From IMG/VR virus record IMGVR_UViG_3300045988_167582: a stretch of 64,000 bases of DNA; one strand, written 5' to 3'. The position numbers and the translations under genes were made by a program. This DNA comes from a virus. A model generated the notes under the pieces. The model was not told where the DNA came from. It did no database searches and was given only the letters and a program-made list of their open reading frames with translations. Each line of letters begins with the position of its first letter. The stretch's first letter is position 1. Positions 3,754 to 38,982 of this stretch are shown here, one piece after another.

Positions 3754-3912
3754 GAAAGTAGTTGCAGATGAAACATAAAGTAGAGTTAGTGCATAACTTA
3801 ATGTATAAAGGTTGTGAGCCACATTGGCATTGTACACAGTGTGATATTTACATACCAATTCATTGCTATAGTAAAAAAGAAATAGAAAATATGAATTGTG
3901 AGGGGAATAGGA

Positions 3913-4203
3913 ATGACAAATGAGAAGCTTACAGATGAAGAAGTGCTAAAAGGCTTGAATGAATTAAGTCAATGTGCAGGCTTAAAGATACACGTAATAC
4001 AAATACTTAAGGGAGCAATTGACCTTCTCAATTGTCAAAAGGCAAAGATTATAAAATTAGAATATTACAATGAAGATTTGCTTGCTGAAGTCAGAAAATT
4101 GAAGGGTTCTACAATAGTTAGTAACATTGTAGAACATCAGAGAATTAAAAGCGAAACAGAAGCTGAAGCATACAAAGAACTTATAGACATATTGTTGAAG
4201 TAG
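3913..4203 (+). CDS. coiled-coil protein, paralog A
   Basis: KLTDEEVLKGLNELSQCAGLKI... is duplicated at 4603-4908. Confidence 0.5.
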   Translation: MTNEKLTDEEVLKGLNELSQCAGLKIHVIQILKGAIDLLNCQKAKIIKLEYYNEDLLAEVRKLKGSTIVSNIVEHQRIKSETEAEAYKELIDILLK

Positions 4204-4433
4204 CATAAAAGGAGAATAAACAAAATGGAAGAGTATATTAGAGAAATTAAACAAATTGCAACTAAATACACAGAAAATCGATATGATGGATATTCACAGA
4301 TTATGAGAGTCTGTGATGCTATGAGAGAACAACAGAAATACTGTTTAGGGTATATGTCTAAAGATGAAATAACATCACCTCAGTTTGATTAGACTTAAAA
4401 TAAATTTCTTGATAAAACTGGAGGTAATTAAGA

Positions 4434-4625
4434 ATGACAAACTATGAACAAATTAAGAATATGAGTATTGAAGAAATGTCAGACTATTTTAACGAAATAT
4501 TTGATTGTCGTAATTGTCCAAATGATAGGTTTTTATGTGAAGGTAACGGCTATGTATGCACAAAGTATATTAAGCAATGGCTTGAAAGTGAGGCTAAACA
4601 AAATGCCGAAAGTAATAAAAAATAA
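4434..4625 (+). CDS. small Cys-containing hypothetical protein
   Basis: GGAGG SD. CRNCPNDRFLCEGNGYVC cysteine cluster. Confidence 0.5.
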   Translation: MTNYEQIKNMSIEEMSDYFNEIFDCRNCPNDRFLCEGNGYVCTKYIKQWLESEAKQNAESNKK

Positions 4626-4908
4626 AAAGCTTACAGATGAAAAAGTAATAAAAGGCTTGAATGAATTAAGTCAATACACAGGTTTGAAAATACAAATAGC
4701 ACAAACGCTTAAAGAAGCTATCGACCTTATCAAACGCCAAAAGTCGGAAATTGAGAGGTTGAAATCAGCTAACGATGAAAAATTTCGCCAATGGGATATG
4801 CTTGCAGAAAAGACAAAACAGCATTATGCTGATTTATACAACGAAGCAAAGGATATACTTAAAGCCGAAGCATACAAAGAGTTTGCAGAGGAGTTAAAAA
4901 CATATTAA
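4603..4908 (+). CDS. coiled-coil protein, paralog B
   Basis: KLTDEKVIKGLNELSQYTGLKI... parallels paralog A. The internal ATG 4603 after GTGAGG is preferred over the ORF-track start 4468. Confidence 0.5.
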   Translation: MPKVIKNKKLTDEKVIKGLNELSQYTGLKIQIAQTLKEAIDLIKRQKSEIERLKSANDEKFRQWDMLAEKTKQHYADLYNEAKDILKAEAYKEFAEELKTY

Positions 4909-5231: not shown

Positions 5232-5462
5232 ATGAAAAAGACAATGCTGAAAACAATCAGTAAGGGGGTCGCACAATGGTGTTCATATTATCGAGCCAAT
5301 CCTCATCGTTTCGCAAAGGACTATCTACATCTTAACTTACACTTGTTCCAAAAAATTCTTATTGTAATGATGAACTGGTCTACGACTACTGCATTCAGAG
5401 GTATGACAATGTTCATTTGGCTCACATGTCCGACTATCGGACAGGTACTTGTATGGCTTTAA
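5232..5462 (+). pseudogene. N-terminal fragment resembling a terminase large subunit
   Basis: YYRANPHRFAKDYLHLNLHLFQKILIVMMN resembles the conserved N-terminus of large terminases. The reading frame degenerates where Walker A (RG.GK) is expected, and it lies far from the packaging module. Confidence 0.4.
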
Positions 5463-5475
5463 CAGAGGTGCCCTT

Positions 5476-6498
5476 ATGACAATCGAAGAAATTAAGAACA
5501 TGGTTGAAAAAGAGAAATATGATTTTCTACGAACCAACCCGCATTTATCAGGAAGGTTGGTCTTCCTGACACTTGGCGGAAGTTACGCATACGGAACGAA
5601 CGTAGAAACCTCCGATGTAGATATTCGTGGCTGTGCTCTGAATCGCAAGAGCGATTTGCTTGGGTTATCTAATTTTGAACAGGTGGTTAATACCGAAACG
5701 GATACCACCGTTTATAGTTTTAATAAGTTGGTAAACTTACTGATTAACTGCAACCCGAATACAATTGAGCTCCTTGGATGTAAACCTGAACACTATTTCC
5801 TGCTTACCGATGTTGGCAGACAGATGATTGAAAATAGGGGGCTTTTCTTATCACAGAAGGCAGTTGCGTCTTTTGGCGGTTATGCTACGCAGCAGTTGCG
5901 TAGGCTCCAAAATACTCTCGCCAGAGATAGGGTTTCTCAAGCCCAGACGGAAGAACATATCAAAGGGGCGTTGGAACGTTCCATTAAATCCTTTGAGAAC
6001 AAGTTTACCTCGTTTGAAAATGGTGGAATTAAACTCTTGACCGACAAAAGCCAGCGTGACGACCTTGATTTGGAGGTTTACTGCAACATTCATATTGATA
6101 AATACCCGGCGAGGGAGTTTCAAACATTGCTTAACACACTTTCCTCTGTTATCGGGAACTACGAAAAGTTGAATCATAGAAATCATAAGAAAGACGATGC
6201 ACACCTTAATAAACACGCTATGCATCTTATCAGGTTGTACCTCATGTGCTTAGATATTCTCGAGAAACAAGAAATCTGTACCTATCGTGAAAATGATAGA
6301 GACTTTTTGCTGAGTATCAGAAATGGTGCGTTTCAGAATGAGGATGGAACATACAAACAGGAATTCTTTGAATTGGTTTCTGATTATGAAGCCCGTCTTC
6401 GGTATGCGAAAGAGAATACCAGTCTCCCAGAAAAGCCCAACATGAAACGAATCGAGGAATTTGTGGTGAGTGTAAATGAGAAATCAGTCAATCTCTAA
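5476..6498 (+). CDS. Pol-beta superfamily nucleotidyltransferase, RlaP-like (RNA-repair-associated family)
   Basis: LGGSYAYGTNVETSDVDIRG is the GS-x-YG-x(5)-SDxD motif. NCNPNTIELL is also present. AGAGGTG SD before ATG 5476. Confidence 0.6.
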   Translation: MTIEEIKNMVEKEKYDFLRTNPHLSGRLVFLTLGGSYAYGTNVETSDVDIRGCALNRKSDLLGLSNFEQVVNTETDTTVYSFNKLVNLLINCNPNTIELLGCKPEHYFLLTDVGRQMIENRGLFLSQKAVASFGGYATQQLRRLQNTLARDRVSQAQTEEHIKGALERSIKSFENKFTSFENGGIKLLTDKSQRDDLDLEVYCNIHIDKYPAREFQTLLNTLSSVIGNYEKLNHRNHKKDDAHLNKHAMHLIRLYLMCLDILEKQEICTYRENDRDFLLSIRNGAFQNEDGTYKQEFFELVSDYEARLRYAKENTSLPEKPNMKRIEEFVVSVNEKSVNL

Positions 6499-7840
6499 AA
6501 TCAATATGCCGGTCGGCGCCAAGAGAATCATTGAGAACCTGACAAAACATGGTTTTGAAGCGTATGTGGTCGGAGGGTGTGTTAGAGATAGTTTGCTCGG
6601 CTATTCTCCAAAGGACTGGGATATTTGCACCTCTGCAACTCCTGAAGTTATCAAAGAACTGCATAACCGCACGATTGATACTGGACTAAAGCATGGGACA
6701 GTAAGTGTAGTCGAAAGCGACGGGATTTACGAGGTTACAACATTCAGAGTGGATGGGGTGTACAGCGATAATCGAAGACCGGATACGGTTGAATTTGTGA
6801 CAGACCTGAAAATGGATTTATCCAGACGGGATTTCACCATCAATGCGATGGCATATAACGATGAAGCTGGAATAATCGACTATTACGGCGGGCTTTCGGA
6901 TTTGGCAGAGCACAAAATAAAGTGTGTCGGCAGCGCCGGTGACAGATTTGATGAGGACGCGCTGCGAATTTTACGGGCAATTCGTTTTTCGTCTGTATAT
7001 GGTTTCTCAGTCGAGCACGATACATCAAAAGCCATTCACGATAAGGCGGCGCTTCTCCAGAACATTGCGAGTGAACGAATCCGGAGTGAGCTGTGTAAAA
7101 CAATTGTATTCGGGCAGAGAACAGCGGATGTTCTCTTGGAATATTCCGATGTGGTGTCAATAATAATCCCGGAGATTGAACCCTGTATCGGATTTGTTCA
7201 GAACAACAGATTCCACAAGTACGATGTGTATGAACACATGGTACGAGCGATGGAGGCATACGCAGGTCATGACTTGTCGGTAAAATTTGCTCTGCTTATC
7301 CATGACATCGGAAAGCCGCTGTGCTATACCGAGGATGAAAACGGAGGTCATTTTTATGGTCACTCCGTCCCGTCGCACGATATTGCAGAACAAGTGGTAG
7401 ACAGGTTGAAATTCGATAACAAAACTAAAGATGAGGTTCTTGAACTGGTTTTATATCATGATTCCGCGATAGAGCCTACTGCCAAGACCGTGAAGCGGTG
7501 GCTCAACAGAATTGGAGCAGAAAGACTCTCTCAGCTCTTGGATGTCAAAATGGCTGATATCGCAGCCCACGCAGATAATACACAGACGGAAAGAATCAAT
7601 CAATATCTATCTGTGAGGGAAATTGCTAAAGAGGTTATTGCATCAGAACAATGTTTCCAGCTCAAGGATTTGGAGATTAACGGGCGAGATGTCATGTCTC
7701 TCGGTGTGGAGGAAGGCAGACAGGTCGGCAGAATTCTGAATTATTTGCTCGAAGGCGTAATTGCCGGTGATATTGATAACACATACGGAGCGCTGCTTAA
7801 ATATGCTCGTGAGATAATTGAAAAGGAAGTGACGAAATGA
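6476..7840 (+). CDS. cca: tRNA nucleotidyltransferase (CCA-adding enzyme) with HD domain
   Basis: VVGGCVRDSLLG, DWDICT, RRDFTINAMAY and LIHDIGKP (HD) motifs. Overlaps the upstream gene by 23 nt. Confidence 0.85.
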   Translation: MRNQSISKINMPVGAKRIIENLTKHGFEAYVVGGCVRDSLLGYSPKDWDICTSATPEVIKELHNRTIDTGLKHGTVSVVESDGIYEVTTFRVDGVYSDNRRPDTVEFVTDLKMDLSRRDFTINAMAYNDEAGIIDYYGGLSDLAEHKIKCVGSAGDRFDEDALRILRAIRFSSVYGFSVEHDTSKAIHDKAALLQNIASERIRSELCKTIVFGQRTADVLLEYSDVVSIIIPEIEPCIGFVQNNRFHKYDVYEHMVRAMEAYAGHDLSVKFALLIHDIGKPLCYTEDENGGHFYGHSVPSHDIAEQVVDRLKFDNKTKDEVLELVLYHDSAIEPTAKTVKRWLNRIGAERLSQLLDVKMADIAAHADNTQTERINQYLSVREIAKEVIASEQCFQLKDLEINGRDVMSLGVEEGRQVGRILNYLLEGVIAGDIDNTYGALLKYAREIIEKEVTK

Positions 7841-8400
7841 AATTTTACATTTCAGATACCCATTTTGGTCATCAGAACATCATTCGATATGATAATCGCC
7901 CGTTTAGTACGGCAGATGAAATGGACGAGGTTCTCATTGACCGATGGAATGATGTAGTGTCTGACGAGGATACGGTGTATGTGCTTGGTGATTTTAGCTG
8001 GCATAGAGAAGAGAAAACACTCAAAATCCTCGATAGTCTTTCAGGACACAAGGTTCTGATTAAGGGAAATCACGATAGGGTTTCGCCCAAAATTGCGAGG
8101 AGATTTGATAAGGTTTGCGACTACCTTGAGATTACGGACGGGAAAGAAAGAGTTGTGATGAGCCATTACCCGATGCCGTTTTGGAACGGGCAGTTTAGGA
8201 ACACGGTTCATCTATATGGTCATGTGCATAACTCACATCAGTGGAATGTTTGCGAGAGTTTGCGAAAAGAACTCAAGGCACTGCAGGATATTCCAATGAG
8301 AATGGTTAATGTCGGTTGCATGATGGAATGGATGGACTATACACCTCAGCCTCTCCATGTTTTAACCGATTCTTTAGGGCAGGAGGGTGAGGCGCTATGA
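7837..8400 (+). CDS. calcineurin-type metallophosphoesterase
   Basis: ISDTHFGH, VLGDFSW, KGNHD and YGHVHN motifs. ATGA start/stop overlap with cca. Confidence 0.75.
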   Translation: MKFYISDTHFGHQNIIRYDNRPFSTADEMDEVLIDRWNDVVSDEDTVYVLGDFSWHREEKTLKILDSLSGHKVLIKGNHDRVSPKIARRFDKVCDYLEITDGKERVVMSHYPMPFWNGQFRNTVHLYGHVHNSHQWNVCESLRKELKALQDIPMRMVNVGCMMEWMDYTPQPLHVLTDSLGQEGEAL

Positions 8401-8690: not shown

Positions 8691-9899
8691 GTGATTTATC
8701 TTGATAATGCTGCAACAACTCAGATTACTCCTGCTGTGGTGGCAGCGATGTTGCCATACTTAACGGATAGCTACGGGAACGCAGGGTCTTTATACAAACT
8801 TGGACGAGATTCTGCTCTCGCTATAGAAAAAGCACGAGCGCAGGTTGCCGGTCTGATGGGTGCAAAGCCGGAACAGATTATTTTCACCTCCGGCGGAAGT
8901 GAGTCAAACAGCTTGGTATTTCATGGACTACGGGATTATCTGCCAAGAATCGGGAAGAAAACGGTGGTGGTTTCTGCTACCGAACATGACTCAGTTCTGA
9001 AGGCAGCAAATGCTCTTCGTATTCCGTTGTGTCGCAACACGGAAATGAATATAAAAGACGACTTTGATATTCGTTTTTTACGTGTTGACCCGTATGGCGA
9101 AGTCGTGCTTGACGACCTTGAAGAAATGCTTGTTTCCTCAGATGTCGGGCTGGTTTCTGTGATGTATGTGAACAATGAAACGGGCGCAATCAATAATGTA
9201 AGAGAAATCGGACGCCTTTGCAAAGAACATGGCGTGCTTTTTCATACCGACTGCGTTCAAGCTGCTGGATGCCATAAAATCGATGTGCGAGAAATGAAGT
9301 GTGATTTCGCCTCAATCTCGTCTCACAAAATTCATGGTTGCAAGGGCGTGGGCGCCTTGTTTGTCAAAGACAAGAATATCCTGTCTCCGATTATCTATGG
9401 AGGCACCGAACAAGAATATGGGTTGCGCGGAGGGACAGAAAATGTTGCAGGAATAGTCGGTTTTGGCGTGGCTGCGGAGATTGCTGCCACGCGGCAAGCG
9501 GAGACCTTAAGCACCGTTACATACTATAAAAAACGATTCTTCCAAAAGGTTTCCGATACACTCCGGAATAATCAAATGCGAGATATTCTAAAAGTCAACG
9601 GGCATTTGTCAAATGCCGGGAAGACACTGAATATCCGGTTTGACGATGTTGACGGTGAGACATTGGTTCTTATGTTGGATTCAAAGGGAATCTGCATTTC
9701 ATCCGGTTCTGCTTGCAGGAGCCACGAATCAGAACCAAGTCATGTCCTAAGAGCAATGGGATTAGAACCGGATGAGGCGAGAGACTCTGTACGAATCTCG
9801 TTTTCAGATTTTAACAGCATCTCTGAAATCGATAACGCTGCAGAAACCATAGCAGAGGTAGTAGTTTTCCTGCGGAAAGGCTTACAAAATGGAAATTAA
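8691..9899 (+). CDS. cysteine desulfurase (NifS/IscS class V aminotransferase)
   Basis: LDNAATT, SSHKIHGCKG (PLP lysine) and SSGSACRS (catalytic Cys) motifs. GTG start after AAGGGGG. Confidence 0.9.
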   Translation: MIYLDNAATTQITPAVVAAMLPYLTDSYGNAGSLYKLGRDSALAIEKARAQVAGLMGAKPEQIIFTSGGSESNSLVFHGLRDYLPRIGKKTVVVSATEHDSVLKAANALRIPLCRNTEMNIKDDFDIRFLRVDPYGEVVLDDLEEMLVSSDVGLVSVMYVNNETGAINNVREIGRLCKEHGVLFHTDCVQAAGCHKIDVREMKCDFASISSHKIHGCKGVGALFVKDKNILSPIIYGGTEQEYGLRGGTENVAGIVGFGVAAEIAATRQAETLSTVTYYKKRFFQKVSDTLRNNQMRDILKVNGHLSNAGKTLNIRFDDVDGETLVLMLDSKGICISSGSACRSHESEPSHVLRAMGLEPDEARDSVRISFSDFNSISEIDNAAETIAEVVVFLRKGLQNGN

Positions 9900-10582: not shown

Positions 10583-10939
10583 ATGGGTAGTTTTGTAAAA
10601 TGTTTTGACACGGTTTCAATGGTCGTAGATGAGGCAACATCTCAGTTCGCACCGATTTGGAAAGAAAATAAAGAAAGCAAAAGAATTTTAGCTCAGTATT
10701 GTGGGGTTATTGATTCTTTGTCAAATGAGTTCGGCGGAGAATCGTTCGAGGTTGATGTAGATGATGTTAAGATGACTATCACTATCAGATTAGAGTGTCA
10801 GGATATGACGCTGGAATCTCAAAAGCATAAGTACTATGACATTGCACAGAGAGCGTTGTCTTTTGGATTTTCGGTATCAGAGTCAGGGAATTTAGTCGTC
10901 GAATTTGTGTTCCCGAGTATTTGGGAAAGAGCTGTTTGA
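10583..10939 (+). CDS. hypothetical protein
   Basis: AAGGAGG SD. Confidence 0.5.
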   Translation: MGSFVKCFDTVSMVVDEATSQFAPIWKENKESKRILAQYCGVIDSLSNEFGGESFEVDVDDVKMTITIRLECQDMTLESQKHKYYDIAQRALSFGFSVSESGNLVVEFVFPSIWERAV

Positions 10940-10952
10940 TTGGAGGAATCCA

Positions 10953-11183
10953 ATGAACAATAAACGACGCGATGTTCTTAAACGTGCTTTGAATTTACTC
11001 GAAAATGCGTCAGAACTCGTCAATCGGGTTCTTGATGAAGAACAGGACAGTCTTGATAACACACCGGAAAATTTGATGGAAAGCGACCAGTATCAAAAAA
11101 GAGAGACTGCCGTCGATAGACTTGAAGAGGCTATTGAACAGATAGAGGAAGCGAAGAATAGCGTAGAGGCAGCGGCAGAATAG
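10953..11183 (+). CDS. hypothetical helical acidic protein
   Basis: GGAGGA SD before ATG 10953. DEEQDSLDNTPENL motif. Confidence 0.5.
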   Translation: MNNKRRDVLKRALNLLENASELVNRVLDEEQDSLDNTPENLMESDQYQKRETAVDRLEEAIEQIEEAKNSVEAAAE

Positions 11184-11195
11184 GGGGAGGTTATT

Positions 11196-11912
11196 ATGTT
11201 TGAGTTTTTTATTGCTCTGTTTGGAGGCTCTTTTTTGGGAGCTAAACTTCATTCAGAGAAGAAGCAACTGAAAGAATTCGATAAGAAACAAGCTGTCATA
11301 AAAGATGCTTACGACTCCGGCGTACAAGCTTGGGAAGCATCTGTAGTTGACAGAAATCTCGAGGACGAATTAACAGAGCGTCTGAATAGCGATATAGAAT
11401 TCAAACAGGCTGCGATTCAGGAAATGCAAGAAGAGCTTGGTGATGACATCCCAGAAACATTGGGTTATCCTACTCCTCGTTCGGCTGTGCTTAGATATTT
11501 GCTTGCAAAGAAAGGAAAATTACTTTCCGCCGATGCTTCGCAATTTGGGATTCGAGTTGTTGCGCCTCAGCCTCACGACAGCAAAGACAAGGCGCGATGG
11601 AAGCAGGAAGTAAAATTTGTTCGTTGGATGGGCTCTAAAATTAAAGATTTTGTTCCTGATGCAACTTTAATGTTTAAGAGCGCTGGGGGTTTTGACAGCA
11701 AACCTCTTTCGGCTAACGCCATCTCTGACTATGACGGCGGAGATTTCTTCTGGGACGTATCTTCTTATGTAACCTACGGCAGTAAGTTTGAACCGACGCA
11801 GGAACAGAAAGAAAAAGAAGCAAGTCTGTCTAACGCCTGTGGGATTTTTGCAGGAATTCTTATTTTGATTTTTGCCTTTGTTATCGCCGTTCTTGCTATT
11901 AAAAGCATTTAA
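11196..11912 (+). CDS. hypothetical protein with C-terminal membrane anchor
   Basis: GGGGGAGG SD. The C-terminus GIFAGILILIFAFVIAVLAI is hydrophobic. Confidence 0.5.
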   Translation: MFEFFIALFGGSFLGAKLHSEKKQLKEFDKKQAVIKDAYDSGVQAWEASVVDRNLEDELTERLNSDIEFKQAAIQEMQEELGDDIPETLGYPTPRSAVLRYLLAKKGKLLSADASQFGIRVVAPQPHDSKDKARWKQEVKFVRWMGSKIKDFVPDATLMFKSAGGFDSKPLSANAISDYDGGDFFWDVSSYVTYGSKFEPTQEQKEKEASLSNACGIFAGILILIFAFVIAVLAIKSI

Positions 11913-12712
11913 TCAAATAAATAATCCGGCAAATCCACTTTGTACCCCAGTAGCACTCTGCCATAGCAGCGGACTTCCGATACGCTATCAGCGCTAACGA
12001 AAACATTCGTGTTTTTTAGCCTCGGGTTTGCAGAAACAAGAGTCAGATTCCTCTTATCATCAACATAGTATTGCTTGCAATATATTGCACCATCAACACA
12101 AAAAATACCAACATCTCCGACAGATAAGTCGCAGTCCTTTTTGACGTAGACAGTGTCGCCATCGTGAATATAGGGTGACATACTGTTGCCTTGAATTCCA
12201 ACAGCAAAGTCTGCGTCGGCAGGGACTGTATCGTCCACGAGAATCATTTCAAAATCATCACCGTCCAAAGGCACGGAATAACCAGCAGCTGACGGCGTTG
12301 AGTATCTCGGGATATATCTGCTCGGGGATTTTCCCTTTTCAAGTGAGACAATCGGCTCGGTGATATTGGAAACTTTAGTTTCGGATTCAACACGGGATTT
12401 TTCCAAGAGGCAGAGGGTTTCTACAGCCTTACGACCATGACGGTCAAGCATTCTATAATTAGACAACAGTATGGATTCTTGCTTGTTAAGCAAAATCGGT
12501 TCCTTTTTAGGTTCGCCACTTATGCCGAGAAGGTAGTCTGTCGAAACACCAAATAACGAAGCCAGAGCAATAATAGCTTTCATGGAAGGGGCTTTAGTAC
12601 CGCTTTCCCAACATCTTACACTTACTTCGGACACACCAAGCCTTTGACTTACATATTTTTGAGTAAGATTTTTTTCAAATCGCAATGAACGAATTCTACT
12701 GCTGAGTTCCAT
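11909..12712 (-). CDS. CI/LexA-type repressor (XRE HTH + S24 self-cleaving peptidase)
   Basis: N-terminal HTH (LTQKYVSQRLGVSEVSVRCWESG), a candidate Ala-Gly cleavage site (PSAAGYS), GNSMSP (Ser) and YCKQY (Lys). GGAGGA SD. Confidence 0.85.
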   Translation of the reverse strand: MELSSRIRSLRFEKNLTQKYVSQRLGVSEVSVRCWESGTKAPSMKAIIALASLFGVSTDYLLGISGEPKKEPILLNKQESILLSNYRMLDRHGRKAVETLCLLEKSRVESETKVSNITEPIVSLEKGKSPSRYIPRYSTPSAAGYSVPLDGDDFEMILVDDTVPADADFAVGIQGNSMSPYIHDGDTVYVKKDCDLSVGDVGIFCVDGAIYCKQYYVDDKRNLTLVSANPRLKNTNVFVSADSVSEVRCYGRVLLGYKVDLPDYLFD

Positions 12713-12750: not shown

Positions 12751-12779
12751 TTGACACCCGGGAAGTTTCGTGGTATTAT
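12751..12779 (+). promoter_or_regulatory. rightward early promoter
   Basis: TTGACA, 17 nt spacer, TATTAT. Confidence 0.6.
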
Positions 12780-12788
12780 TAAGACCGA

Positions 12789-12830
12789 AACAAAAGTTTA
12801 GCATAGACATGATAACACGAACAAAAGTTT
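12789..12830. promoter_or_regulatory. two copies of the 11-mer AACAAAAGTTT (candidate operators)
   Basis: Copies at 12789-12799 and 12820-12830, 31 bp apart. One lies at the two predicted transcription starts and one in the spacer of the leftward promoter. Confidence 0.45.
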
Positions 12831-12837: not shown

Positions 12838-12865
12838 GTGTTATTGCCAAAGTACACAGCGGTAA

Positions 12866-12998
12866 AAAGAAAACACCCCATTCGAAGATGGGGTGCCGGA
12901 ACGCACCACAAAGCGACCAAACAATGTGATGCAACCACAACAGAGTCGTAGTGTTATCTACAACCCGGATAGGTTGAATAACCACAAACCACCTATCC
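12866..12998 (-). ncRNA. candidate ~130-nt antisense small RNA
   Basis: Own promoter (13005-13033), a 5' hairpin GGATAGGT/ACCTATCC (12967-12998), and a 3' hairpin CACCCCAT/ATGGGGTG (12874-12895) followed by TTTTCTTTTT on the minus strand. Confidence 0.4.
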
Positions 12999-13004
12999 TA
13001 TTGT

Positions 13005-13033
13005 AGTATACCACAAAGATTTGAAAAAATCAA
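13005..13033 (-). promoter_or_regulatory. promoter of the candidate sRNA
   Basis: On the minus strand: TTGATT, 17 nt spacer, TGgTATACT (extended -10). Confidence 0.45.
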
Positions 13034-13050: not shown

Positions 13051-13365
13051 ATGCAGAAAATATCTCTTAGCGAGTTCAGCAAGTGCTGTTCCGCACAATC
13101 ATACACAAGATTCATTTTATCTACGGATAATCAAGCTTGGGATAAAATTGATAACACGATGCGTATGGAATTTGAATTTAACTCTATTAGTGTCAGTTAT
13201 AATCCAAATATAATTAGGTTGAGTCTCGGCAGTAATTATATGAGTTTTGAAAGAGTAAAATACATAAAAATCGAGGAATCTTCGATTCTCGGTATGGTAT
13301 ATACTATCGTTTGCGGTAATCCAATAGTCAAAAGCGATGATTTTTATACCATCATAGCCCGCTGA
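13051..13365 (+). CDS. hypothetical first early protein
   Basis: GGAGGAG SD 8 nt before ATG 13051, so the ORF-track TTG 13021 is unlikely. No clear HTH. Confidence 0.5.
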   Translation: MQKISLSEFSKCCSAQSYTRFILSTDNQAWDKIDNTMRMEFEFNSISVSYNPNIIRLSLGSNYMSFERVKYIKIEESSILGMVYTIVCGNPIVKSDDFYTIIAR

Positions 13366-13395
13366 ATAATTTTTGAAGTAAATTTTATAATTATC

Positions 13396-13424
13396 TTGAC
13401 AAAGAAGATTTTTTGTGCTATACT
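13396..13424 (+). promoter_or_regulatory. near-consensus promoter in front of the MazF-like gene
   Basis: TTGACA, 17 nt spacer, TGcTATACT (extended -10). Confidence 0.6.
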
Positions 13425-13442
13425 GTTGCCGTAAGATGAACT

Positions 13443-13895
13443 ATGGCGAAAGGATGTGGCACCTTGAGTCTCCCTACTATCAGCGGCAGACAGCCCCAAA
13501 TCGGGGATATTTACTTAATGCACTTCGGAGGAAGCGGAAATGAACAAAAAGGCTGGAGACCCGGATTGGTATTTCAAAACAATCTGGGAAATCGGTATAG
13601 CCCTAATATAATAGCATTACCCTTAACGAGTGCAATTAAAAAATCAAACCAACCAACCCATGTATTTATTCCGTCAAGAGACACTGGGCTTGTAAAAGAC
13701 AGTATGGTTCTTTGCGAAAATCCTGAATGTATGTCAAAGGAGAGAATCGGAAACTACCTTACGACTTTACCGAAAGAATACATGAGCAAAATTGCGATTG
13801 CTAATTTATTGGCTTCATCAGCGTTGTCTTATATCGACCCAGATATACTCCTTGCAGTTTGGCAGAAGGCGTTAGCATTAAATGCGATAGCCTAA
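13443..13895 (+). CDS. MazF/PemK-family endoribonuclease-like toxin with a ~40-aa C-terminal extension
   Basis: GDIYLMHFGGSGNEQKGWRPGLVFQNN...IIALPLTS...THVFIP...SMVLCENPECMSKERI follows the PemK/MazF pattern. Confidence 0.7.
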   Translation: MAKGCGTLSLPTISGRQPQIGDIYLMHFGGSGNEQKGWRPGLVFQNNLGNRYSPNIIALPLTSAIKKSNQPTHVFIPSRDTGLVKDSMVLCENPECMSKERIGNYLTTLPKEYMSKIAIANLLASSALSYIDPDILLAVWQKALALNAIA

Positions 13896-13917
13896 TACAT
13901 AGAAGGAGGTTAAGGCT

Positions 13918-14868
13918 ATGTATAACGAAGAATTAAAAGCACGATTTGTTCATGGATATACAAAAAGTATTTCGACTGCAAAGTTGTGCGAAACAATTTT
14001 TAACGCCATTGAACCATATGAAGTCCAGTGGGGCGCAGATATGTGTACCAGAAGCGCAGAGGAACTGCAGCCGGTAATTGAAAATATCACAGGGTTTCGT
14101 CTGAAAAGCAAGTGGAGTCGAATTATTATCCTAAAAGATTACGTGAAGTGGTGTATGACCGTTGCAAATGTCCCGAATGCTTGTGACGGAATGCTTCAAG
14201 TCAATTCTGCTGGGCTTGACAAAATCAGGCGGCAAATGGTAGCGAGTCCACTACATCTTCAAAAATATCTTGACCAATTATACGACAATGAATCCATGCA
14301 TACAACTGATAACATTTATCGTTGTTATTATTGGCTTGCGTATGGCGGTGTAGCAGAAGAGGATATCATCAAGATTAAATGCAAAGATATCGATTTCTCA
14401 AATATGGTTGTTCATTACAACGGGACGGAAGTGCCGATATATCGGGAAGCAATACAGGCTTTTAAAAATTGCGTAGAATTAACGCAGTTTGTTTATAACC
14501 ATCCCAACTATAACAAGACTGTTTGGAAAGATAGGGCAGAAGGAGATACCGTTGTCCGAGGTATTCGTTCAACGGCGTCTGTAAAATATCTTCGTGTTGA
14601 GCTATCCAGAAAGGCAAAATCGAAGGAAGAGCAGACTGGAATTCGCTTAAGTTACTACAGGGCATGGCTTTCAGGGATTTTTTATCGAGCTTACGAGCGA
14701 GAGGCTGTTGGAGAGACGCCGAATTTCAGGGCGGTTGCTTCAGCTCATATGGATGGTAGGGTTTATAAACTCGACAGCGGCAGAAATACTGAGGAAGCAA
14801 AAAAAAGACAGCTTGCAAAAGACTATATGAGCGACTATCAAAGATGGAAACTTGCATTTAAGATTTAG
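13918..14868 (+). CDS. hypothetical; possibly a tyrosine-recombinase-fold regulator (MrpR/YopR-like) lacking a catalytic motif
   Basis: GAAGGAGG SD 23 nt after the mazF-like stop. The N-terminus resembles a core-binding (SAM-like) domain. No HxxR...Y catalytic signature is seen. Assignment is from memory only. Confidence 0.3.
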   Translation: MYNEELKARFVHGYTKSISTAKLCETIFNAIEPYEVQWGADMCTRSAEELQPVIENITGFRLKSKWSRIIILKDYVKWCMTVANVPNACDGMLQVNSAGLDKIRRQMVASPLHLQKYLDQLYDNESMHTTDNIYRCYYWLAYGGVAEEDIIKIKCKDIDFSNMVVHYNGTEVPIYREAIQAFKNCVELTQFVYNHPNYNKTVWKDRAEGDTVVRGIRSTASVKYLRVELSRKAKSKEEQTGIRLSYYRAWLSGIFYRAYEREAVGETPNFRAVASAHMDGRVYKLDSGRNTEEAKKRQLAKDYMSDYQRWKLAFKI

Positions 14869-14878
14869 TTTCAAAAAT

Positions 14879-14910
14879 GAGAACACCCGTGTTACGGGTT
14901 TCTCTTTACA
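14879..14910 (+). terminator. hairpin with a short T tract after the 316-aa gene
   Basis: GAGAACACCCG-tgtta-CGGGTTTCTC followed by TTTACAT. Confidence 0.4.
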
Positions 14911-14941
14911 TATATCAACCTAATTAGAAAAACTGCAATAT

Positions 14942-15016
14942 TGAGGTGTAGCCAAGCGGTAAGGCACAGGACTTTGACTCCTGCATTCGTCAGTTCAAAT
15001 CTGACCATCTCAGCCA
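14942..15016 (+). tRNA. tRNA-Gln (anticodon UUG) with genomically encoded CCA
   Basis: Hand-folded cloverleaf. Acceptor TGAGGTG/CATCTCA, anticodon arm CAGGA-CTTTGAC-TCCTG (TTG at 14974-14976), T arm GTCAG-TTCAAAT-CTGAC, discriminator G, then CCA. Confidence 0.85.
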
Positions 15017-18836: not shown

Positions 18837-18878
18837 CAAATCAGCCTAATTAAAAAAATTGCTATCGGAGGTGATGGT

Positions 18879-24969: not shown

Positions 24970-25014
24970 CCTGCCGTATCAAGATAATTAAAAAATATGC
25001 AAAGGAGCTAATAT

Positions 25015-25734
25015 ATGAATCCAAGAGACGCTTGCGAAGTCGCGTATCAGAATGGTTATGCTCAGGGGCTGCTTGATAGCGGTGTCCACCGCGTTGAAAA
25101 TTGCGAATGCGTTTCCAATGCGAAAGTCTTCGGGTTAGAAGACAGTATTCGCGGAGCTAAATTCCCTATGTCAACGGATGTAAGCAAACTTAACACAGAG
25201 ATGACCGATGGAATTAAGGCTTTAGCGCAAAGTAAAAAGGGAGAAGGGCATGACCAATGGCTCACGGGAGTGATTGTCCAGTTTGACCTAACGTTTTCAA
25301 ATAAAGCGTGGGTTGAAGCAGAACGTTATAGCTTTCTCGATTTCGTAAGTTCACAAAGTACAATGCACAGGATTTCAAGATTTAACTTTGAAAAGGTATA
25401 TAACGAGTTTGTTGATGATAGGATTATCGAGATTATCAAAGAAAAGGTTGAGCGGTACAACGATTATTGCGCCTCGATTACCACCGGGCTTACGCCACAG
25501 AGCGTAGAATGCCAGCAAGCCATTGAAGCCAAGAAAAAAGAATTATACCTTGATATCTTATATAACAACCCGGCTGGTTGCCAAATCACTGCGAGAATGT
25601 CAACAAACTATCGTCAGCTGAAAACAATTTATTCTCAGCGGAAAAATCATAGGCTGCCTGAGTGGCGGACATTCTGTAAATGGATTGAGACATTACCCAT
25701 GAGTGAGTTGATTACGGGCAACGATAAGGGGTGA
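25015..25734 (+). CDS. ThyX-like protein with a degenerate RHR/SxRY motif
   Basis: FDLTFSNKAWVEAERYSFLDFVSSQSTMH aligns by eye to the ThyX segment F.F.vSR....el.RHR..S.sqqSqRY. The C-terminal NYRQLKTIYSQR...EWR resembles N.Re....l.lR...AqwEiR. Confidence 0.35.
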   Translation: MNPRDACEVAYQNGYAQGLLDSGVHRVENCECVSNAKVFGLEDSIRGAKFPMSTDVSKLNTEMTDGIKALAQSKKGEGHDQWLTGVIVQFDLTFSNKAWVEAERYSFLDFVSSQSTMHRISRFNFEKVYNEFVDDRIIEIIKEKVERYNDYCASITTGLTPQSVECQQAIEAKKKELYLDILYNNPAGCQITARMSTNYRQLKTIYSQRKNHRLPEWRTFCKWIETLPMSELITGNDKG

Positions 25735-26171: not shown

Positions 26172-26710
26172 AGGTAATCTTAATTTCTGGCAAAGCACAA
26201 AACGGCAAAGACACGGTAGCAGCATATATGAGAGAAAAACTGACAGAAGATAAACACCGTGTTTTGATTACACATTATGCGGACTTGCTCAAATATATCT
26301 GTCGCAGTTATTTTGGCTGGGACGGAGTGAAGGACGAGAAGGGACGCAAAATGTTACAGTACGTTGGTACTGATGTTATTAGGAAAGAAAACCCGAGCCT
26401 ATGGGTGGATTTCGTGGCACTTATGCTGAAATACTTCCACGAAAACTGGGACTATGTTATTATCCCTGACTGCCGGTTTCCTAATGAGGTATCCACAATG
26501 CGAGATAGTGGGTTTGACACCTTATATCTGCGCATTATCAGAAGCAATTTTGCCAGCCCTCTTACAGAAGAACAGCAGAAACATCCGTCAGAGACAGCCC
26601 TTGACGGGTACGACGCTGACTACTGTATTGATAACAACGGAACGCTTTCGGAGTTAAAAACGAAAGTCGATAATTGGATTAAGGAGAGTTTATATGAGCA
26701 CGAATCATAA
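26168..26710 (+). CDS. deoxynucleoside monophosphate kinase
   Basis: P-loop ISGKAQNGKDT. Overall resembles phage dNMP kinases. TTG start overlapping the upstream stop. Confidence 0.6.
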   Translation: MKVILISGKAQNGKDTVAAYMREKLTEDKHRVLITHYADLLKYICRSYFGWDGVKDEKGRKMLQYVGTDVIRKENPSLWVDFVALMLKYFHENWDYVIIPDCRFPNEVSTMRDSGFDTLYLRIIRSNFASPLTEEQQKHPSETALDGYDADYCIDNNGTLSELKTKVDNWIKESLYEHES

Positions 26711-27335
26711 GGGTTATTACGACATTGACATCGATATCGAAAAAGCACTGATTGATAGTGGAATGATTGATGAAATCTTCTACTTGAAAGACCTTAAACA
26801 GCGAAAGCTTTTCCTGAATACCGATGTCGAACAACTCTCCGTTGGAGAAATCGTAAAACACATCATGCAGTATAACAAAGAGGACATCGGCATTGAACCC
26901 GACAAGAGAACTCCCATCATTCTGTATGTATCTTCTAATGGAGGCGAAGTCGATTCCGGATTTGAACTTATTGATGTGATTATGGCAAGTAAGACACCTG
27001 TTTTTACTGTCAATCTCGGATATCAGTACAGCATGGGCTTTTTAATCGGTCTTGCCGGAACCAAAAGATTTGCTATGCGCAACGCAAAGTTCCTTATGCA
27101 TGACGGTTCAAATTTTGTATATAACTCGGGAGCGAAAGCACAAGACCAGATGGAATTTCAGCGTCGCGTAGAAGACATGATTAAGCAGTACATCCTCTCC
27201 CGAAGCAAAATTACAAGCAAGGAATACGACAGTAAACTTAGAGTTGAGTGGTACCTTTTTGCGGATGAAGCTAAGGACAAGGGGTTCTGTGATTACATTA
27301 TCGGAGACGACTGCGACATCGATGAGGTGATTTAA
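26694..27335 (+). CDS. ClpP-family serine protease, paralog 2
   Basis: YVSSNGGEV, GYQYSMGFLIGLAG (Ser), FLMHDGS (His) and FADEAKDKGFCDYII motifs. Confidence 0.75.
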   Translation: MSTNHKGYYDIDIDIEKALIDSGMIDEIFYLKDLKQRKLFLNTDVEQLSVGEIVKHIMQYNKEDIGIEPDKRTPIILYVSSNGGEVDSGFELIDVIMASKTPVFTVNLGYQYSMGFLIGLAGTKRFAMRNAKFLMHDGSNFVYNSGAKAQDQMEFQRRVEDMIKQYILSRSKITSKEYDSKLRVEWYLFADEAKDKGFCDYIIGDDCDIDEVI

Positions 27336-34043: not shown

Positions 34044-35312
34044 ATGTCCGAAAAGAGACGCGACAACAAGGGTAGGTTGCTACAGTCCTGCGAAAGACAA
34101 AGAAGCGACGGTATGTATGAGTTTCGGTACTTAGACAAGCAAGGTAAGAAGCATAGTGTGTATAGTTGGAAGCTGGTTTCCACAGACAAGGTGCCACTGG
34201 GCAAGAGATGTAAAGAGCCTCTGCGTGATACGGAACGCAGGATTATTCGAGACCTTGAGGACGGCATAGATACCATCGAAGCATACAAGACTACGCTCAA
34301 CCATTTCTTTAATGAGTATATCGAAACAAAATATGAACTGAAACAATCTACCCGAACAAACTATAAGTATATGTACCGCAAGTATGTGCGAGATGACTTT
34401 GGCTGTAAGAAGATTGCGAGCATTAAATATAGCGATGTCAAGAAGTTCTATATCTCTTTGATTAGGGATAGAGGTTTCAAGCCCAACAGTTTAGAAACAA
34501 TCCACACAATACTTCATCCTGTTTTCACAGCCGCCATGAGGGACGGTAAAATCAGAGTTAATCCAAGCGACGGGGTGATGGCTGAAATTAAGAAAAGCCA
34601 CGACTGGTCAAAACCAAAACGACACGCACTAACAATTCCCGAACAAGAGGCGTTCGTGAAGTTTTGTAGTAAGAGCAAGCAATACCAGCATTGGATGCCA
34701 TTGTTTACTGTGTTCCTCGGGACTGGATGCAGAGTTGGCGAGGTTATAGGACTTCGATGGGAAGACTGTGATTTTGAACACAACCTTATTTCCATCAATC
34801 ACAACCTTATATACAGGCAACAGGATAGCGGAGTGTGTGAATTCCACATTACAACCCCGAAGACCGAATCTGGTAAGCGTGTGATACCGATGTTGCAAAA
34901 AGTCAAGGACGCACTGCTGCTTGAGTACAAAATCCAATCACGGGGTGGCTTCAATGAAACGGTAATCGATGGTTATAGTGGATTCATATTTAAGAATCGA
35001 TTTGGCTCCGTGGTGTCAGCCCACTGCATAAACAGAGCGATTGAGAGAATATGTAGAGACTATAATAAGGAAGAAAAAGAAAAGGCAAAAGCCGAACAAC
35101 GAGAGCCTGTTTTGATACCTCATTTTACAGTACACCAATTACGACATACATTCTGTACCCGGTTCTGTGAAAACGAGACGAATATCAAAGTCATTCAAGA
35201 AATAATGGGTCACGCTGATATCTCAACGACGATGGATATCTATAATGAAGCAACGATGGCAAAGAAAGTTGAAAGCTTTGCAAACCTTGAAGGCAAGATA
35301 AAAATATGCTGA
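34044..35312 (+). CDS. int: tyrosine integrase, Tn916 Int family
   Basis: N-terminal MSEKRRDNKGRLL...YSWKL arm-binding domain. C-terminal HQLRHTFCTRF...GHADISTTMDIY. Confidence 0.9.
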   Translation: MSEKRRDNKGRLLQSCERQRSDGMYEFRYLDKQGKKHSVYSWKLVSTDKVPLGKRCKEPLRDTERRIIRDLEDGIDTIEAYKTTLNHFFNEYIETKYELKQSTRTNYKYMYRKYVRDDFGCKKIASIKYSDVKKFYISLIRDRGFKPNSLETIHTILHPVFTAAMRDGKIRVNPSDGVMAEIKKSHDWSKPKRHALTIPEQEAFVKFCSKSKQYQHWMPLFTVFLGTGCRVGEVIGLRWEDCDFEHNLISINHNLIYRQQDSGVCEFHITTPKTESGKRVIPMLQKVKDALLLEYKIQSRGGFNETVIDGYSGFIFKNRFGSVVSAHCINRAIERICRDYNKEEKEKAKAEQREPVLIPHFTVHQLRHTFCTRFCENETNIKVIQEIMGHADISTTMDIYNEATMAKKVESFANLEGKIKIC

Positions 35313-38052: not shown

Positions 38053-38982
38053 TTACACTCTCTTAAGATATTTGCCGGCACACATCCAGTTGCCGCTCTC
38101 GAGTTGACACCAGTTACCCTGACGAGCCACGACATAGAATATCTCGCCTCTTGAGTACTGCCCGACTCGGCGATACCTTACAGACGGACCCTTGCGAACA
38201 TATAACATTTGGCAAGTCATAGTGTAGGCTGTGCCTCTGTGTGACGGAGCAGGTGACGCAGACACATTGTTCACATATGTACCTTTGGTGTTCTGAACGC
38301 CGCAAAACTCGGCAGGATTTATGCGCGTAACCGTGCCTTTACCAGTGCGAACCTCGTAATGAGTATGTGCACCAAAACTGTTGCCGGTGTTACCCATTAT
38401 GCCGACAACATCACCGGCAGAAACCCTCTGACCCTTATGCATAGAGATAGACGCAAGGTGCGCGTAAAAGTGCCGCTTGCCGGTTGAATCGGTTATGACA
38501 ACAAGGTTGCCATAGCTCTGTGTGCCTGTTTTGGTTTTGCCGTCCCAGACGGAAACCATTGATACTGTGCCGCCCTCTACCGCGTGGACGGTTCTATCAT
38601 CATCTCCGACTATGTCTATACCGCCGTGTCCTTGTTTAGTATTGATATTATATGTGTACGGCTGCGTTACGCGGTTACGACCGGAAAAAAGCATTCCTGC
38701 CGCATATCCGCCTGTTTCTTCATTCTGCCTTACATCGTCTTCCGTACCGTATGTGAGAGCTCTTGCGCTATCGTTCAAGCCCTCAGTTGTCGGGTCAACG
38801 AGTATTCCGAGTGCAGACAGAAAATTCACGATAAGCATTAAGACCCCCGTCAGCGTGTCCTCACTCACTTTTGGCACGATTTCAAACATTCCGAGGATTT
38901 GATAAATTGTCGCCAAAATAAGTGTAATCAGCGACACCACGAATGTCTTGTTCTTAAACCTCTGCTTGATGTTGATTTTCAT
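38053..38982 (-). CDS. holin (phiLC3/SPP1 type) fused to an M23 peptidase and an SH3 domain
   Basis: aa 1-80 MKINIKQRFKNKTFVVSLITLIL...GILVDPTTEGLNDS is holin-like. GHGGIDIV...HLASI...GNTGNSFGAHTHYEV carries the M23 HxxxD/HxH motifs. The C-terminus YVRKGPS...GNWCQL is SH3-like. Confidence 0.8.
   Translation of the reverse strand: MKINIKQRFKNKTFVVSLITLILATIYQILGMFEIVPKVSEDTLTGVLMLIVNFLSALGILVDPTTEGLNDSARALTYGTEDDVRQNEETGGYAAGMLFSGRNRVTQPYTYNINTKQGHGGIDIVGDDDRTVHAVEGGTVSMVSVWDGKTKTGTQSYGNLVVITDSTGKRHFYAHLASISMHKGQRVSAGDVVGIMGNTGNSFGAHTHYEVRTGKGTVTRINPAEFCGVQNTKGTYVNNVSASPAPSHRGTAYTMTCQMLYVRKGPSVRYRRVGQYSRGEIFYVVARQGNWCQLESGNWMCAGKYLKRV

Follow-up and report, generated by a model that had tools for sequence, protein, structure and literature searches.

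A phage-encoded MazF-family gene linked to an MrpR/SroF-like recombinase-fold gene in a temperate phage lineage of Clostridia

Organization of the mazF and mrpR-like genes

MazF toxins normally pair with small MazE/PemI antitoxins. Here, we describe a locus in the 64,000-nt stretch of the virus record IMGVR_UViG_3300045988_167582 (hereafter the window), derived from a large temperate phage, in which a gene for a MazF/PemK-family protein stands first in a two-gene cassette and is followed by a gene for a 316-aa protein with a tyrosine-recombinase fold. The cassette has the following features:

13396-13424, + strand: sigma-70-type promoter, with -35 TTGACA (13396-13401), a 17-nt spacer, TG (13416-13417) and -10 TATACT (13419-13424)
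13448-13454, + strand: Shine-Dalgarno (SD) sequence GAAAGGA of mazF, 9 nt 5' of TTG 13464
13464-13895, + strand: mazF, MazF/PemK-family endoribonuclease, 143 aa from its most likely start TTG 13464 (the first-called open reading frame (ORF) starts at ATG 13443 and has 150 aa)
13839-13892, + strand: family-specific MazF C-terminal extension of ~18-20 aa, DPDILLAVWQKALALNAIA, past the end of the alignment with Bacillus subtilis MazF (MazF-bs)
13896-13901, + strand: UACAUA, candidate MazF self-cleavage site between the mazF stop and the partner SD
13903-13909, + strand: SD AAGGAGG of the mrpR-like gene, 8 nt before ATG 13918
13918-14868, + strand: mrpR-like gene, 316 aa, tyrosine-recombinase fold, putative DNA-binding regulator (PF22822; AlphaFold2 (AF2)/Foldseek)
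14885-14907, + strand: intrinsic terminator, stem-loop ACCCGTGTTACGGGT plus T-rich tail, closing the cassette
14907-14936, + strand: post-terminator element TACATATATCAACCTAATTAGAAAAACTGC, candidate promoter/operator, heading the next gene block (tRNA-Gln, HD, ERF and others)

Three features outside the cassette are also referred to below:

13051-13365, + strand: ORF104, conserved but fast-evolving gene of 104 aa with SD GGAGGAG, the first gene after the CI-controlled rightward promoter
11909-12712, - strand: CI-type repressor gene (HTH_3 and Peptidase_S24), divergent, 680 nt from the cassette
34044-35312: bona fide tyrosine integrase gene of the Tn916 type (PF00589 and PF02920)

Related loci (numbered L001 and so on) were gathered from both sides, by using first the MrpR-like protein and then the MazF subfamily as query. 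Motifs, promoters and gene junctions were counted over 46 non-redundant related loci and terminators over 48.

The cassette promoter matches the consensus at 11 of 12 positions, has an extended -10 TG and is immediately preceded by an A/T-rich UP-like stretch (13379-13395). The first-pass annotation of this DNA, made from the letters alone, had reported TTGACA-17-TGcTATACT, and exactly this was found. The form TTGAC[AT]-17(+/-1)-TGnTATACT/TATAAT was kept in 43 of the 46 loci with differing spacer sequences; sigma-70-like sites as a class were not enriched in the region (11 found vs 9.5 +/- 3.3 expected). At the other end, a GC-rich hairpin with a T-tract followed the mrpR-like stop codon in 36 of the 48 loci, again with differing stem sequences. 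The mrpR-like gene begins 22 nt past the mazF stop and, as annotated before, has a strong SD, and GGAGG was present at 36 of the 46 mazF/mrpR-like junctions. Translation of mazF appears to begin at TTG, ATG or GTG with AAGGA, and that of the partner at ATG with GGAGG. The promoter, the short gap and the downstream terminator bear out the earlier proposal that both genes belong to one transcription unit and, judged from these signals, they form an autonomous promoter-to-terminator two-gene cassette. A 'moron-like' layout with promoter and terminator is the expectation for prophage-expressed accessory genes, from which we infer that the cassette is expressed in the lysogen. The unit was also said to lack a separate small antitoxin ORF, and all ORFs of at least 30 aa in 13425-14868 were indeed only nested ones in alternative frames.

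The phage MazF and its C-terminal extension

The earlier assignment of ORF 13443-13895 to the MazF/PemK-like proteins was confirmed by matches to PF02452 (PemK_toxin; E 1.5e-22, 80.3 bits vs a cutoff of 23.1) and to PHROG 1936, 'MazF-like growth inhibitor' (E 2.9e-25). The nearest solved structures were those of B. subtilis EndoA/MazF, 4mdx and 4me7 (E 9e-18), and MazF/PemK proteins of S. aureus and B. anthracis were also matched. In the HMMER alignment with MazF-bs, the catalytic residues R25 and T48 correspond to R39 and T62 of the phage protein (150-aa numbering), and the GxRP, QN..GN, SP and PTHV motifs are retained. The catalytic Arg and Thr were invariant in family alignments of 19 and 29 homologues. 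Because these residues and the core motifs are conserved, the phage MazF is predicted to be an active endoribonuclease and not a decayed remnant.

Most MazF homologues are 143 aa long, with a start that corresponds to TTG 13464, and the upstream 'KGCGT' conservation in longer-called homologues is in fact that of the nucleotide SD GAAAGGA. We therefore moved the start to TTG 13464, which is most likely the true one. In nearly all of the 43 promoter-bearing loci, an AAGGA/AAGGAG SD is followed by TTG, ATG or GTG 5-13 nt on. Given this start, the mazF leader is ~33 nt long and contains an SD, so that its earlier description as almost SD-less had to be abandoned. Short complementary arms could be recognized 5' of the mazF SD in some loci, with a predicted stability of only 0 to -2 kcal/mol.

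The start correction also changed the size comparison. Instead of the 40 extra residues claimed previously, the phage MazF is ~27 aa longer than MazF-bs, with ~8 aa at the N terminus and ~20 aa at the C terminus. The tail quoted by the first-pass annotation was too long: the alignment with MazF-bs ends at residue 121 of 150, and the first half of that tail, YMSKIAIANLLASSALSYID, is the ordinary MazF C-terminal helix, so the real extension is ~PDILLAVWQKALALNAIA. P126, L129, W133, Q134 and N140 are invariant in it (143-aa numbering). Other phage-borne genes of PHROG 1936 in GenBank share the domain with the window MazF, but their tblastn matches span only residues 14-109 of 143, and they have neither the extension nor an MrpR-like neighbour.

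The extension is predicted by a low-confidence model to form one extra helix. One explanation of it, in line with the built-in inhibitor suggested by the first-pass annotation, is a cis-acting inhibitor in the RNA channel of MazF, by which a self-restrained toxin would be freed upon some trigger. The tail is strongly conserved and amphipathic with an invariant Trp, and MazE, AimX and YosL all inhibit MazF via a short helix (PMC10769878). On the other hand, the MazF monomer model (pLDDT 47) was unusable for placing the tail, the conservation equally fits a partner-docking surface, and cis-inhibition would leave the obligatory downstream partner unexplained. We consider this proposal very improbable.

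A partner of the MrpR/SroF type

The N-terminus of the 316-aa protein had been likened to a recombinase core-binding (CB) domain, and the protein as a whole to MrpR/YopR of SPbeta. Both suggestions were well founded. PF22822 (MrpR_N_CB) matched residues 1-80 (E 1.1e-13, 52 bits vs a cutoff of 27) and was also carried by those of its homologues that were listed. When the family profile was compared with the Protein Data Bank (PDB), box I of XerA (E 0.011) and the YopR N-terminus (E 0.22) were matched. The AF2 model, built with 22 homologues, had a pLDDT of 85.3 and a pTM of 0.74, and its best Foldseek matches in the PDB were phi3T SroF-DNA 9rd5 (E 1.5e-7, TM 0.54), YopR 8bj6/8bpz, MrpR 8a0a and SroF-Sar 9rgl, with E values of 1.5e-7 to 4e-7 for SroF, YopR and MrpR. 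The modest TM scores are due to a different domain orientation. True recombinases (Tn1549 Int, XerA, XerD, Cre and lambda Int) ranked below these repressors. The family is large, with 742 clusters at 50% identity (E<=1e-30).

The catalytic residues appear to be only partly retained. The recombinase Arg-I of XerA aligns with A146, a position that varies among A, D, S, P, K and E in the family, and no invariant Lys was found in the beta-hairpin. R248 within S245-Y-Y-R248 and Y303/Y307 are invariant; motif position and the model suggest that Arg-II (R248) and the Tyr (Y303/Y307) are kept and that His-II is lost (replaced by S245). The earlier remark that an HxxR...Y signature is missing fits the apparent loss of Arg-I but overlooked the invariant Arg and Tyr that remain. 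PF00589 had no match in the 316-aa protein, and hhalign of its family against the window's own integrase found no alignment. Taken together, the protein is predicted from sequence and model to be a catalytically dead recombinase-fold protein. A similarly partial pattern (Arg-I and His-II gone, Arg-II and Tyr kept) is known for MrpR, which is without recombinase activity (PMC10516654, Table 3).

Some relatives have additional parts: P0279 has a duplicated N-terminal CB domain, P0297 a C-terminal pair of HTH-like repeats, and P0363 is fused at its C-terminus to the small 'EEQDSLDN.PENL' protein, for which the window has a stand-alone gene (10905-11183). In GenBank phages, no tblastn match to the 316-aa protein was found at 1e-5, and the only DNA-level matches to the locus were to the tRNA.

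Linkage of the two genes in related loci

With the MrpR-like protein as query, 60 viral contigs were collected; a MazF gene, in one case frameshifted, stood directly upstream in 55 and was absent from five. In the reverse search with the MazF subfamily, the MrpR-like gene was directly downstream in 80 of 80 viral loci, although nearly all loci come from one syntenic phage lineage and the counts are therefore not independent events. Both genes were also found in 17 of 17 complete loci on contigs of genomes and metagenome-assembled genomes (MAGs). Most gaps between them measured 10-30 nt, and a few loci had an ORF inserted, a tandem duplication or an overlap; the linkage held for very divergent partners scoring 58-260 bits.

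The exceptions all point in one direction. At least three lineages (L009-11, L055/62 and L177) have the regulator but no MazF, and in MazF-less loci the cassette promoter is retained directly 5' of the mrpR-like gene. L048 has the regulator with a frameshifted MazF, and L140 (3995-4444) has an in-frame, full-length MazF coding region without an ATG, GTG or TTG start and without a promoter of its own. No MazF of the tail-bearing subfamily lacked the regulator in the 80 viral and 17 complete genome loci. This one-way loss implies that the regulator is the constant and presumably essential component and MazF the accessory one, an asymmetry that a toxin and its keeper would be expected to show. 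For the 316-aa protein, the first-pass annotation had proposed either a large antitoxin/regulator or a second repressor; both proposals still stand and gain weight from the strictly one-way linkage. Several rearranged loci kept the pair together: in L141 (3986-5179) it lies between unrelated flanks with a 248-aa partner that has no CB domain; in L059 both CI and ORF104 are missing; in L075 and L127 the downstream genes differ, and in L127 (3992-5898) a 120-aa ORF stands between mazF and its partner. In L131 (3989-6467), the MrpR-like gene is duplicated in tandem, and a MazF fragment separates the copies.

These observations bear on the simplest alternative, in which the two genes are not coupled at all: MazF would be an early lytic host-takeover RNase, as filed by PHROG, the MrpR-like protein an unrelated early regulator, and their adjacency inherited synteny. 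Most loci are indeed syntenic, and stand-alone MazF-like genes without a recognizable partner are common in phage replication modules. Furthermore, the early lytic transcript should also read through the cassette, as the stretch from the CI-controlled promoter (12751-12779) up to it contains no terminator. However, the pair stays adjacent even where neighbours change on both sides, its loss is strictly one-way, and its own promoter and terminator are conserved by function rather than by sequence. In addition, the tail is specific to MazFs with an MrpR-like partner, and the junction motif described below is positioned relative to the partner start codon. Mere synteny is thus less likely, and we rate it as quite improbable.

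The UACAUA motif at the gene junction

In the window, UACAUA, a motif that the first-pass annotation had missed, follows directly after the mazF stop codon. TACATA was present at the mazF/mrpR-like junction in 29 of the 46 loci, where only SD pentamers were commoner. It ends 13-23 nt (mostly 17-22) before the partner ATG, and its position relative to the mazF stop ranges between -7 and +11; where it is missing, the junction is in most cases less than 15 nt long. For comparison, TACAT occurs within 40 nt upstream of only 7 of the 73 window genes. UACAU is the B. subtilis MazF recognition site, as quoted in PMC10769878 from Park et al. 2011 (its ref 17). By analogy, the junction UACAUA is a candidate site of self-cleavage, at which mazF would be uncoupled from the partner mRNA.

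It should be noted that UACAU was not depleted in the 46 operons (103 observed vs 82 expected); its frequency ratio between operon and downstream genes was 0.8, and no pentamer was strikingly absent. The transcript is hence not simply immune to MazF, and the idea that it is protected by a lack of MazF sites was rejected, assuming a specificity like that of MazF-bs. The motif was also considered as the -10 of an internal promoter and rejected: its sixth base is A, and it lies only 3-9 nt from the SD, so that any transcript from there would begin within or after the SD.

A second TACAT begins the post-terminator element, whose ~30-nt consensus is TACATATATCAAsnTAATTAAATAA...TGC. Within 90 nt after the mrpR-like stop, TACAT was found in 28 of 46 loci compared with 5-6 of 46 control windows. 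In the three MazF-less lineages, TACAC or TACCA stands there instead, which is suggestive (n=3). Related copies of the post-terminator element lie at 18840-18862 and 24978-25000; a ~23-nt intergenic repeat, ATCAnCCTAATTAnAAAAAnTGC, occurs at 14914-14936, 18840-18862 and 24978-25000, with a weak copy at 4237-4259, and is also present in L001, L022, L025, L039 and other related loci. Its place is always just 5' of a gene in the same orientation (tRNA-Gln, DnaG and the gene at 25015). In a second clade of loci, a core ATCAACATAATT is found in the mazF leader and on the leftward transcript ~250 nt upstream. By analogy with SPBRE, the repeat could serve as a phage-specific promoter or as an operator for the MrpR-like protein.

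ORF104 and the CI/early region

The divergent HTH_3 and Peptidase_S24 repressor gene, 680 nt away, corroborates the earlier statement that the unit sits next to the CI switch. Between the two lies ORF104, which the first-pass annotation had missed; 137 of 143 loci contain it, and no MazF-less lineage has lost it. L026, L059, L127 and L141 lack it and still have MazF and the MrpR-like gene. The mean column identity of ORF104 was 27%. No Pfam, PHROG or PDB match and no similarity to MazE, AbrB, RHH or PHD antitoxins or to Sar/YopT could be detected for it. Its distance matrix correlated with that of the MrpR-like protein at r 0.78, the highest value of all, with 0.4-0.7 for the other pairs; being only slightly above background, this is weak evidence.

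Two roles were considered for ORF104. First, it could be a novel-fold antitoxin of MazF, with the MrpR-like gene merely next in line. The position upstream of the toxin gene is typical of MazE, 104 aa is an antitoxin-like size, the linkage is very high, and ORF104 evolves fast, as many antitoxins do. Nevertheless, the strong conserved promoter between ORF104 and mazF makes a classical antitoxin less likely, since it allows MazF to be made without ORF104, and no MazE/PemI-type antitoxin gene lies immediately 5' of mazF in the same operon. The four loci with an intact pair and no detectable ORF104, the retention of ORF104 in all MazF-less lineages and its lack of similarity to MazE, AbrB, RHH and PHD also speak against it. 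This role is less likely and, in our judgement, distinctly doubtful.

Second, ORF104 is a candidate third component, an anti-repressor-like or anti-MazF factor, on account of its position behind the promoter of an SOS-cleavable CI, which resembles that of the LexA-controlled Sar. Sar is the LexA-controlled anti-repressor of SroF (bioRxiv 10.1101/2025.11.27.690993). Such a factor would fit the main rival explanation of the cassette, a co-operative lysogeny module without direct neutralisation, in which the phage would have taken over the MazF arm of the SPbeta/phi3T circuit: MazF would degrade lytic transcripts, the MrpR/SroF-like protein would repress lytic promoters, and MazF would be switched off either by ORF104 on induction (in the manner of AimX/YosL or of Sar) or by its own tail. 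Joint action of MazF and SroF has a precedent (PMC10769878; bioRxiv 2025.11.27.690993). ORF104, first behind the CI-controlled promoter, linked and fast-evolving, gave the best matrix correlation with the partner, the regulator is kept where MazF is lost, and the repeated intergenic element heading gene blocks could be an operator. Against such a module, a cassette that is on while ORF104 is repressed would expose lysogens to unrestrained active MazF, the cassette shows no UACAU depletion compared with the downstream lytic genes, ORF104 has no recognizable similarity to Sar/YopT or to any PDB or Pfam entry, and the mirror-tree gap to background is small. We regard this module as a serious but rather doubtful possibility; it is compatible with the toxin-antitoxin reading set out below.

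The CI region itself has facing near-consensus promoters, TTGACA-17-TATTAT at 12751-12779 (+) and TTGACA-17-TATCAT at 12837-12809 (-), whose transcripts would overlap by ~16 nt, and direct repeats CGAA(A)CAAAAGTTT at 12786-12799 and 12818-12830. These elements probably make up the CI/early switch and its operators. The cassette promoter was also checked for a CI operator, and this idea was rejected, since no copy of the ACAAAAGTTT repeats from the CI region occurs near 13396. In the early rightward leader, between the CI-controlled promoter and ORF104, we found a candidate structured antisense small RNA of ~135 nt (12865-13005, -), with a promoter-like sequence at 13033-13005, a strong intrinsic terminator at 12897-12872 and a predicted fold of -56.5 kcal/mol (z = -5.85 vs shuffles). 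Its sequence similarity is confined to close relatives and no Rfam match was found; a minus-strand TTGATT-17-TGnTATACT followed by a long-stem terminator ~110-135 nt on is also present in the diverged loci L001 and L039.

A proposed toxin-first model of the cassette

Given these findings, the reading we favour, tentatively and at somewhat short of even confidence, is that of a toxin-first, toxin-antitoxin (TA)-like cassette, in which an indispensable MrpR/SroF-type regulator is the keeper of an active MazF. As in type II TA systems, toxin and partner genes are adjacent and co-transcribed, and their linkage is conserved. We infer direct neutralisation of MazF by its partner, and likewise the self-cleavage step and the biological output that follow. 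The strong, constitutive-looking sigma-A promoter would produce a bicistronic mRNA, probably in the lysogen too. MazF would be translated weakly (TTG, moderate SD) and the partner strongly (AAGGAGG-8-ATG), and these unequal signals should leave the partner in excess. The partner may hold MazF harmless by binding it, probably via the C-terminal helix, and/or by repressing the cassette. By cutting its own mRNA at UACAUA, 5' of the partner SD, MazF could generate a terminator-less mazF fragment and a stable partner mRNA, which would amount to negative feedback. Were induction, superinfection or loss of the element to upset the balance, MazF set free in this way would cleave RNA and, by analogy with host MazF in SPbeta/phi3T, lysogeny might be favoured or the infection aborted.

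Several points weigh against this reading. An antitoxin of 316 aa would be unusually large, and PADLOC gave no match to a known anti-phage defence system for MazF, the MrpR-like protein or ORF104 at E<=0.1. The mirror-tree correlation between MazF and its partner (r 0.50) was not above the background of 0.4-0.7, MazF being poorly correlated with every protein compared, and the linkage counts, as noted, largely trace back to a single lineage. No MazF::MrpR-like fusion was found among the length-outlier family representatives examined, and the poor MazF model gives no placement for the helix. With regard to self-cleavage, the specificity of MazF-bs is borrowed for the phage enzyme by analogy, UACAU is not depleted in the operons, and the junction UACAUA could equally be read as a DNA-level or another RNA-level signal.

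A more far-reaching version, which we consider unlikely though not as remote as uncoupled adjacency or an ORF104 antitoxin, is that MazF and the SroF/MrpR-type pseudo-recombinase together make up a lysis-lysogeny or addiction module. Here the partner would be both a repressor and a new class of MazF antitoxin docking on the C-terminal helix, and UACAUA processing flanking the repressor cistron would set the ratio of toxin to keeper. In such a hard-wired module, the phage would have internalised the host-MazF arm of the SPbeta arbitrium circuit.

Comparison with known systems

The phage MazF shares the PemK/MazF fold and the Arg25/Thr48 equivalents with MazF/EndoA (YdcE) of B. subtilis, whose antitoxin is MazE (YdcD), and with MazF of S. 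aureus MazEF, and the published UACAU site of the B. subtilis enzyme is conserved inside the phage operon. However, the toxin gene is phage-encoded and comes first in its unit with no MazE-type gene upstream, a further conserved helix of ~20 aa is predicted for MazF, and it has a 316-aa recombinase-fold protein as its partner. Since MazE, the defining partner, is missing, the cassette is not a MazEF system in the strict sense. It resembles reverse-order type II TA systems (HigBA, MqsRA and HicAB) in that the toxin gene precedes the gene of a DNA-binding partner in a tight bicistron with its own promoter, but the family and size of the partner are unprecedented for a MazF toxin, and its neutralising role is putative.

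SPbeta MrpR (YopR) and phi3T SroF (8A0A, 8BJ6, 9RD5) have PF22822, the fold and a similar length (~320 vs 316 aa) in common with the partner, although the identity is only ~13-15%. The genes also differ in context: the partner gene lies in a two-gene MazF cassette rather than in the six-gene sroA-F/yopM-R operon, the window phage has a separate CI/S24 repressor, and the hosts are Clostridia rather than Bacillus. DNA binding and repression by the 316-aa protein are putative by analogy. Lysogeny in phi3T/SPbeta is under joint control of host MazF activity and the SroF/MrpR repressor operon; phage transcripts are degraded by the host MazF, and lytic promoters are repressed by SroF (PMC10769878; bioRxiv 10.1101/2025.11.27.690993; PMC10516654). 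That arbitrium-MazEF network thus resembles the cassette in combining MazF with an SroF-type repressor, there tied to the lysis-lysogeny decision of a temperate Firmicutes phage. Nonetheless, its MazF is a host gene product held by MazE and modulated by the small phage proteins AimX, YosL and phi3T_93, whereas the window MazF is phage-encoded and operonic with the repressor homologue. The SPbeta-type context of a six-gene operon, arbitrium and a downstream Sar was not found, the neighbours being CI/S24, ORF104, tRNA-Gln, HD and ERF; no arbitrium genes were identified in the window, although no search aimed at them was made.

No description of a MazF-MrpR-like pairing was found in the literature searched, PADLOC or the GenBank phage collection. 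What appears to be new is the obligatory coupling of MazF to the regulator, the MazF tail and the junction motif; both components come from known families. To our knowledge, recombinase-fold repressors of the MrpR/SroF type have been recognized only recently and only in Bacillus SPbeta-like phages. If the favoured reading is true, this repressor class reaches far beyond Bacillus, and a new type of antitoxin or keeper for MazF is suggested. It would also provide a compact and testable picture of the way in which an RNase co-operates with a repressor in prophage maintenance, superinfection exclusion or addiction, with the UACAUA motif as a directly testable prediction of autoregulatory self-cleavage. 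The regulator family is not only large but also found in abundant phages of human and animal gut Clostridia.

Genomic setting and additional observations

Rightward in the window, a NifS-like gene, small genes, CI, ORF104, mazF, the mrpR-like gene, the terminator and tRNA-Gln(UUG) are followed by genes for an HD phosphohydrolase, ERF, an SSB-like protein, PD-(D/E)XK, DnaB, DnaG and Pol III alpha. The identical gene order was observed on long contigs of other samples. Elsewhere in the window there are genes for ClpP, a radical SAM protein, RlaP, a CCA-adding enzyme, a metallophosphatase, NrdD, dUTPase, PhoH, a dNMP kinase and the integrase. Genome and MAG matches came from Ruminococcus, Oscillospiraceae, Flavonifractor, Angelakisella, Roseburia and unclassified Clostridia, some of them on contigs of 142-426 kb, consistent with integrated prophages. 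We assign the carriers to a lineage of temperate phages that infect Oscillospiraceae, Ruminococcus and other Clostridia of the gut.

The tRNA-Gln(UUG) gene (14942-15016) lies directly 3' of the cassette terminator, and the same arrangement was found in 12 of the 46 loci scanned (L001, L002, L012, L014, L016, L019, L050, L053, L116, L117, L125 and L129); at this spot, L053 has eight tRNA genes. The left arm (872-1732, 5449-8400 and 8691-9899) contains RNA/tRNA repair and modification genes, encoding RlaP (RNA-repair Pol-beta family), a metallophosphoesterase, a radical SAM protein, a NifS-like cysteine desulfurase and a CCA-adding/poly(A) polymerase-type nucleotidyltransferase with an HD domain. 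One relative also has a Thg1-like enzyme (L001, 2131-2949). Such repair genes are worth noting in a phage that also encodes an RNase toxin. An Rfam scan detected tRNA only, and NCBIfam gave nothing informative.

The phage genome has two separate ClpP-family protease genes (16-489 and 26694-27335). A 142-nt direct repeat of 77% identity (3909-4050 and 4611-4752) has a spacing of 702 nt, as does a second short repeat pair (4160/4862), which suggests two paralogous small genes in tandem. Finally, a 309-aa ORF (38053-38982, -) combines Phage_holin_1, Peptidase_M23 and SH3_3 in one protein, which would represent a holin-endolysin fusion architecture.

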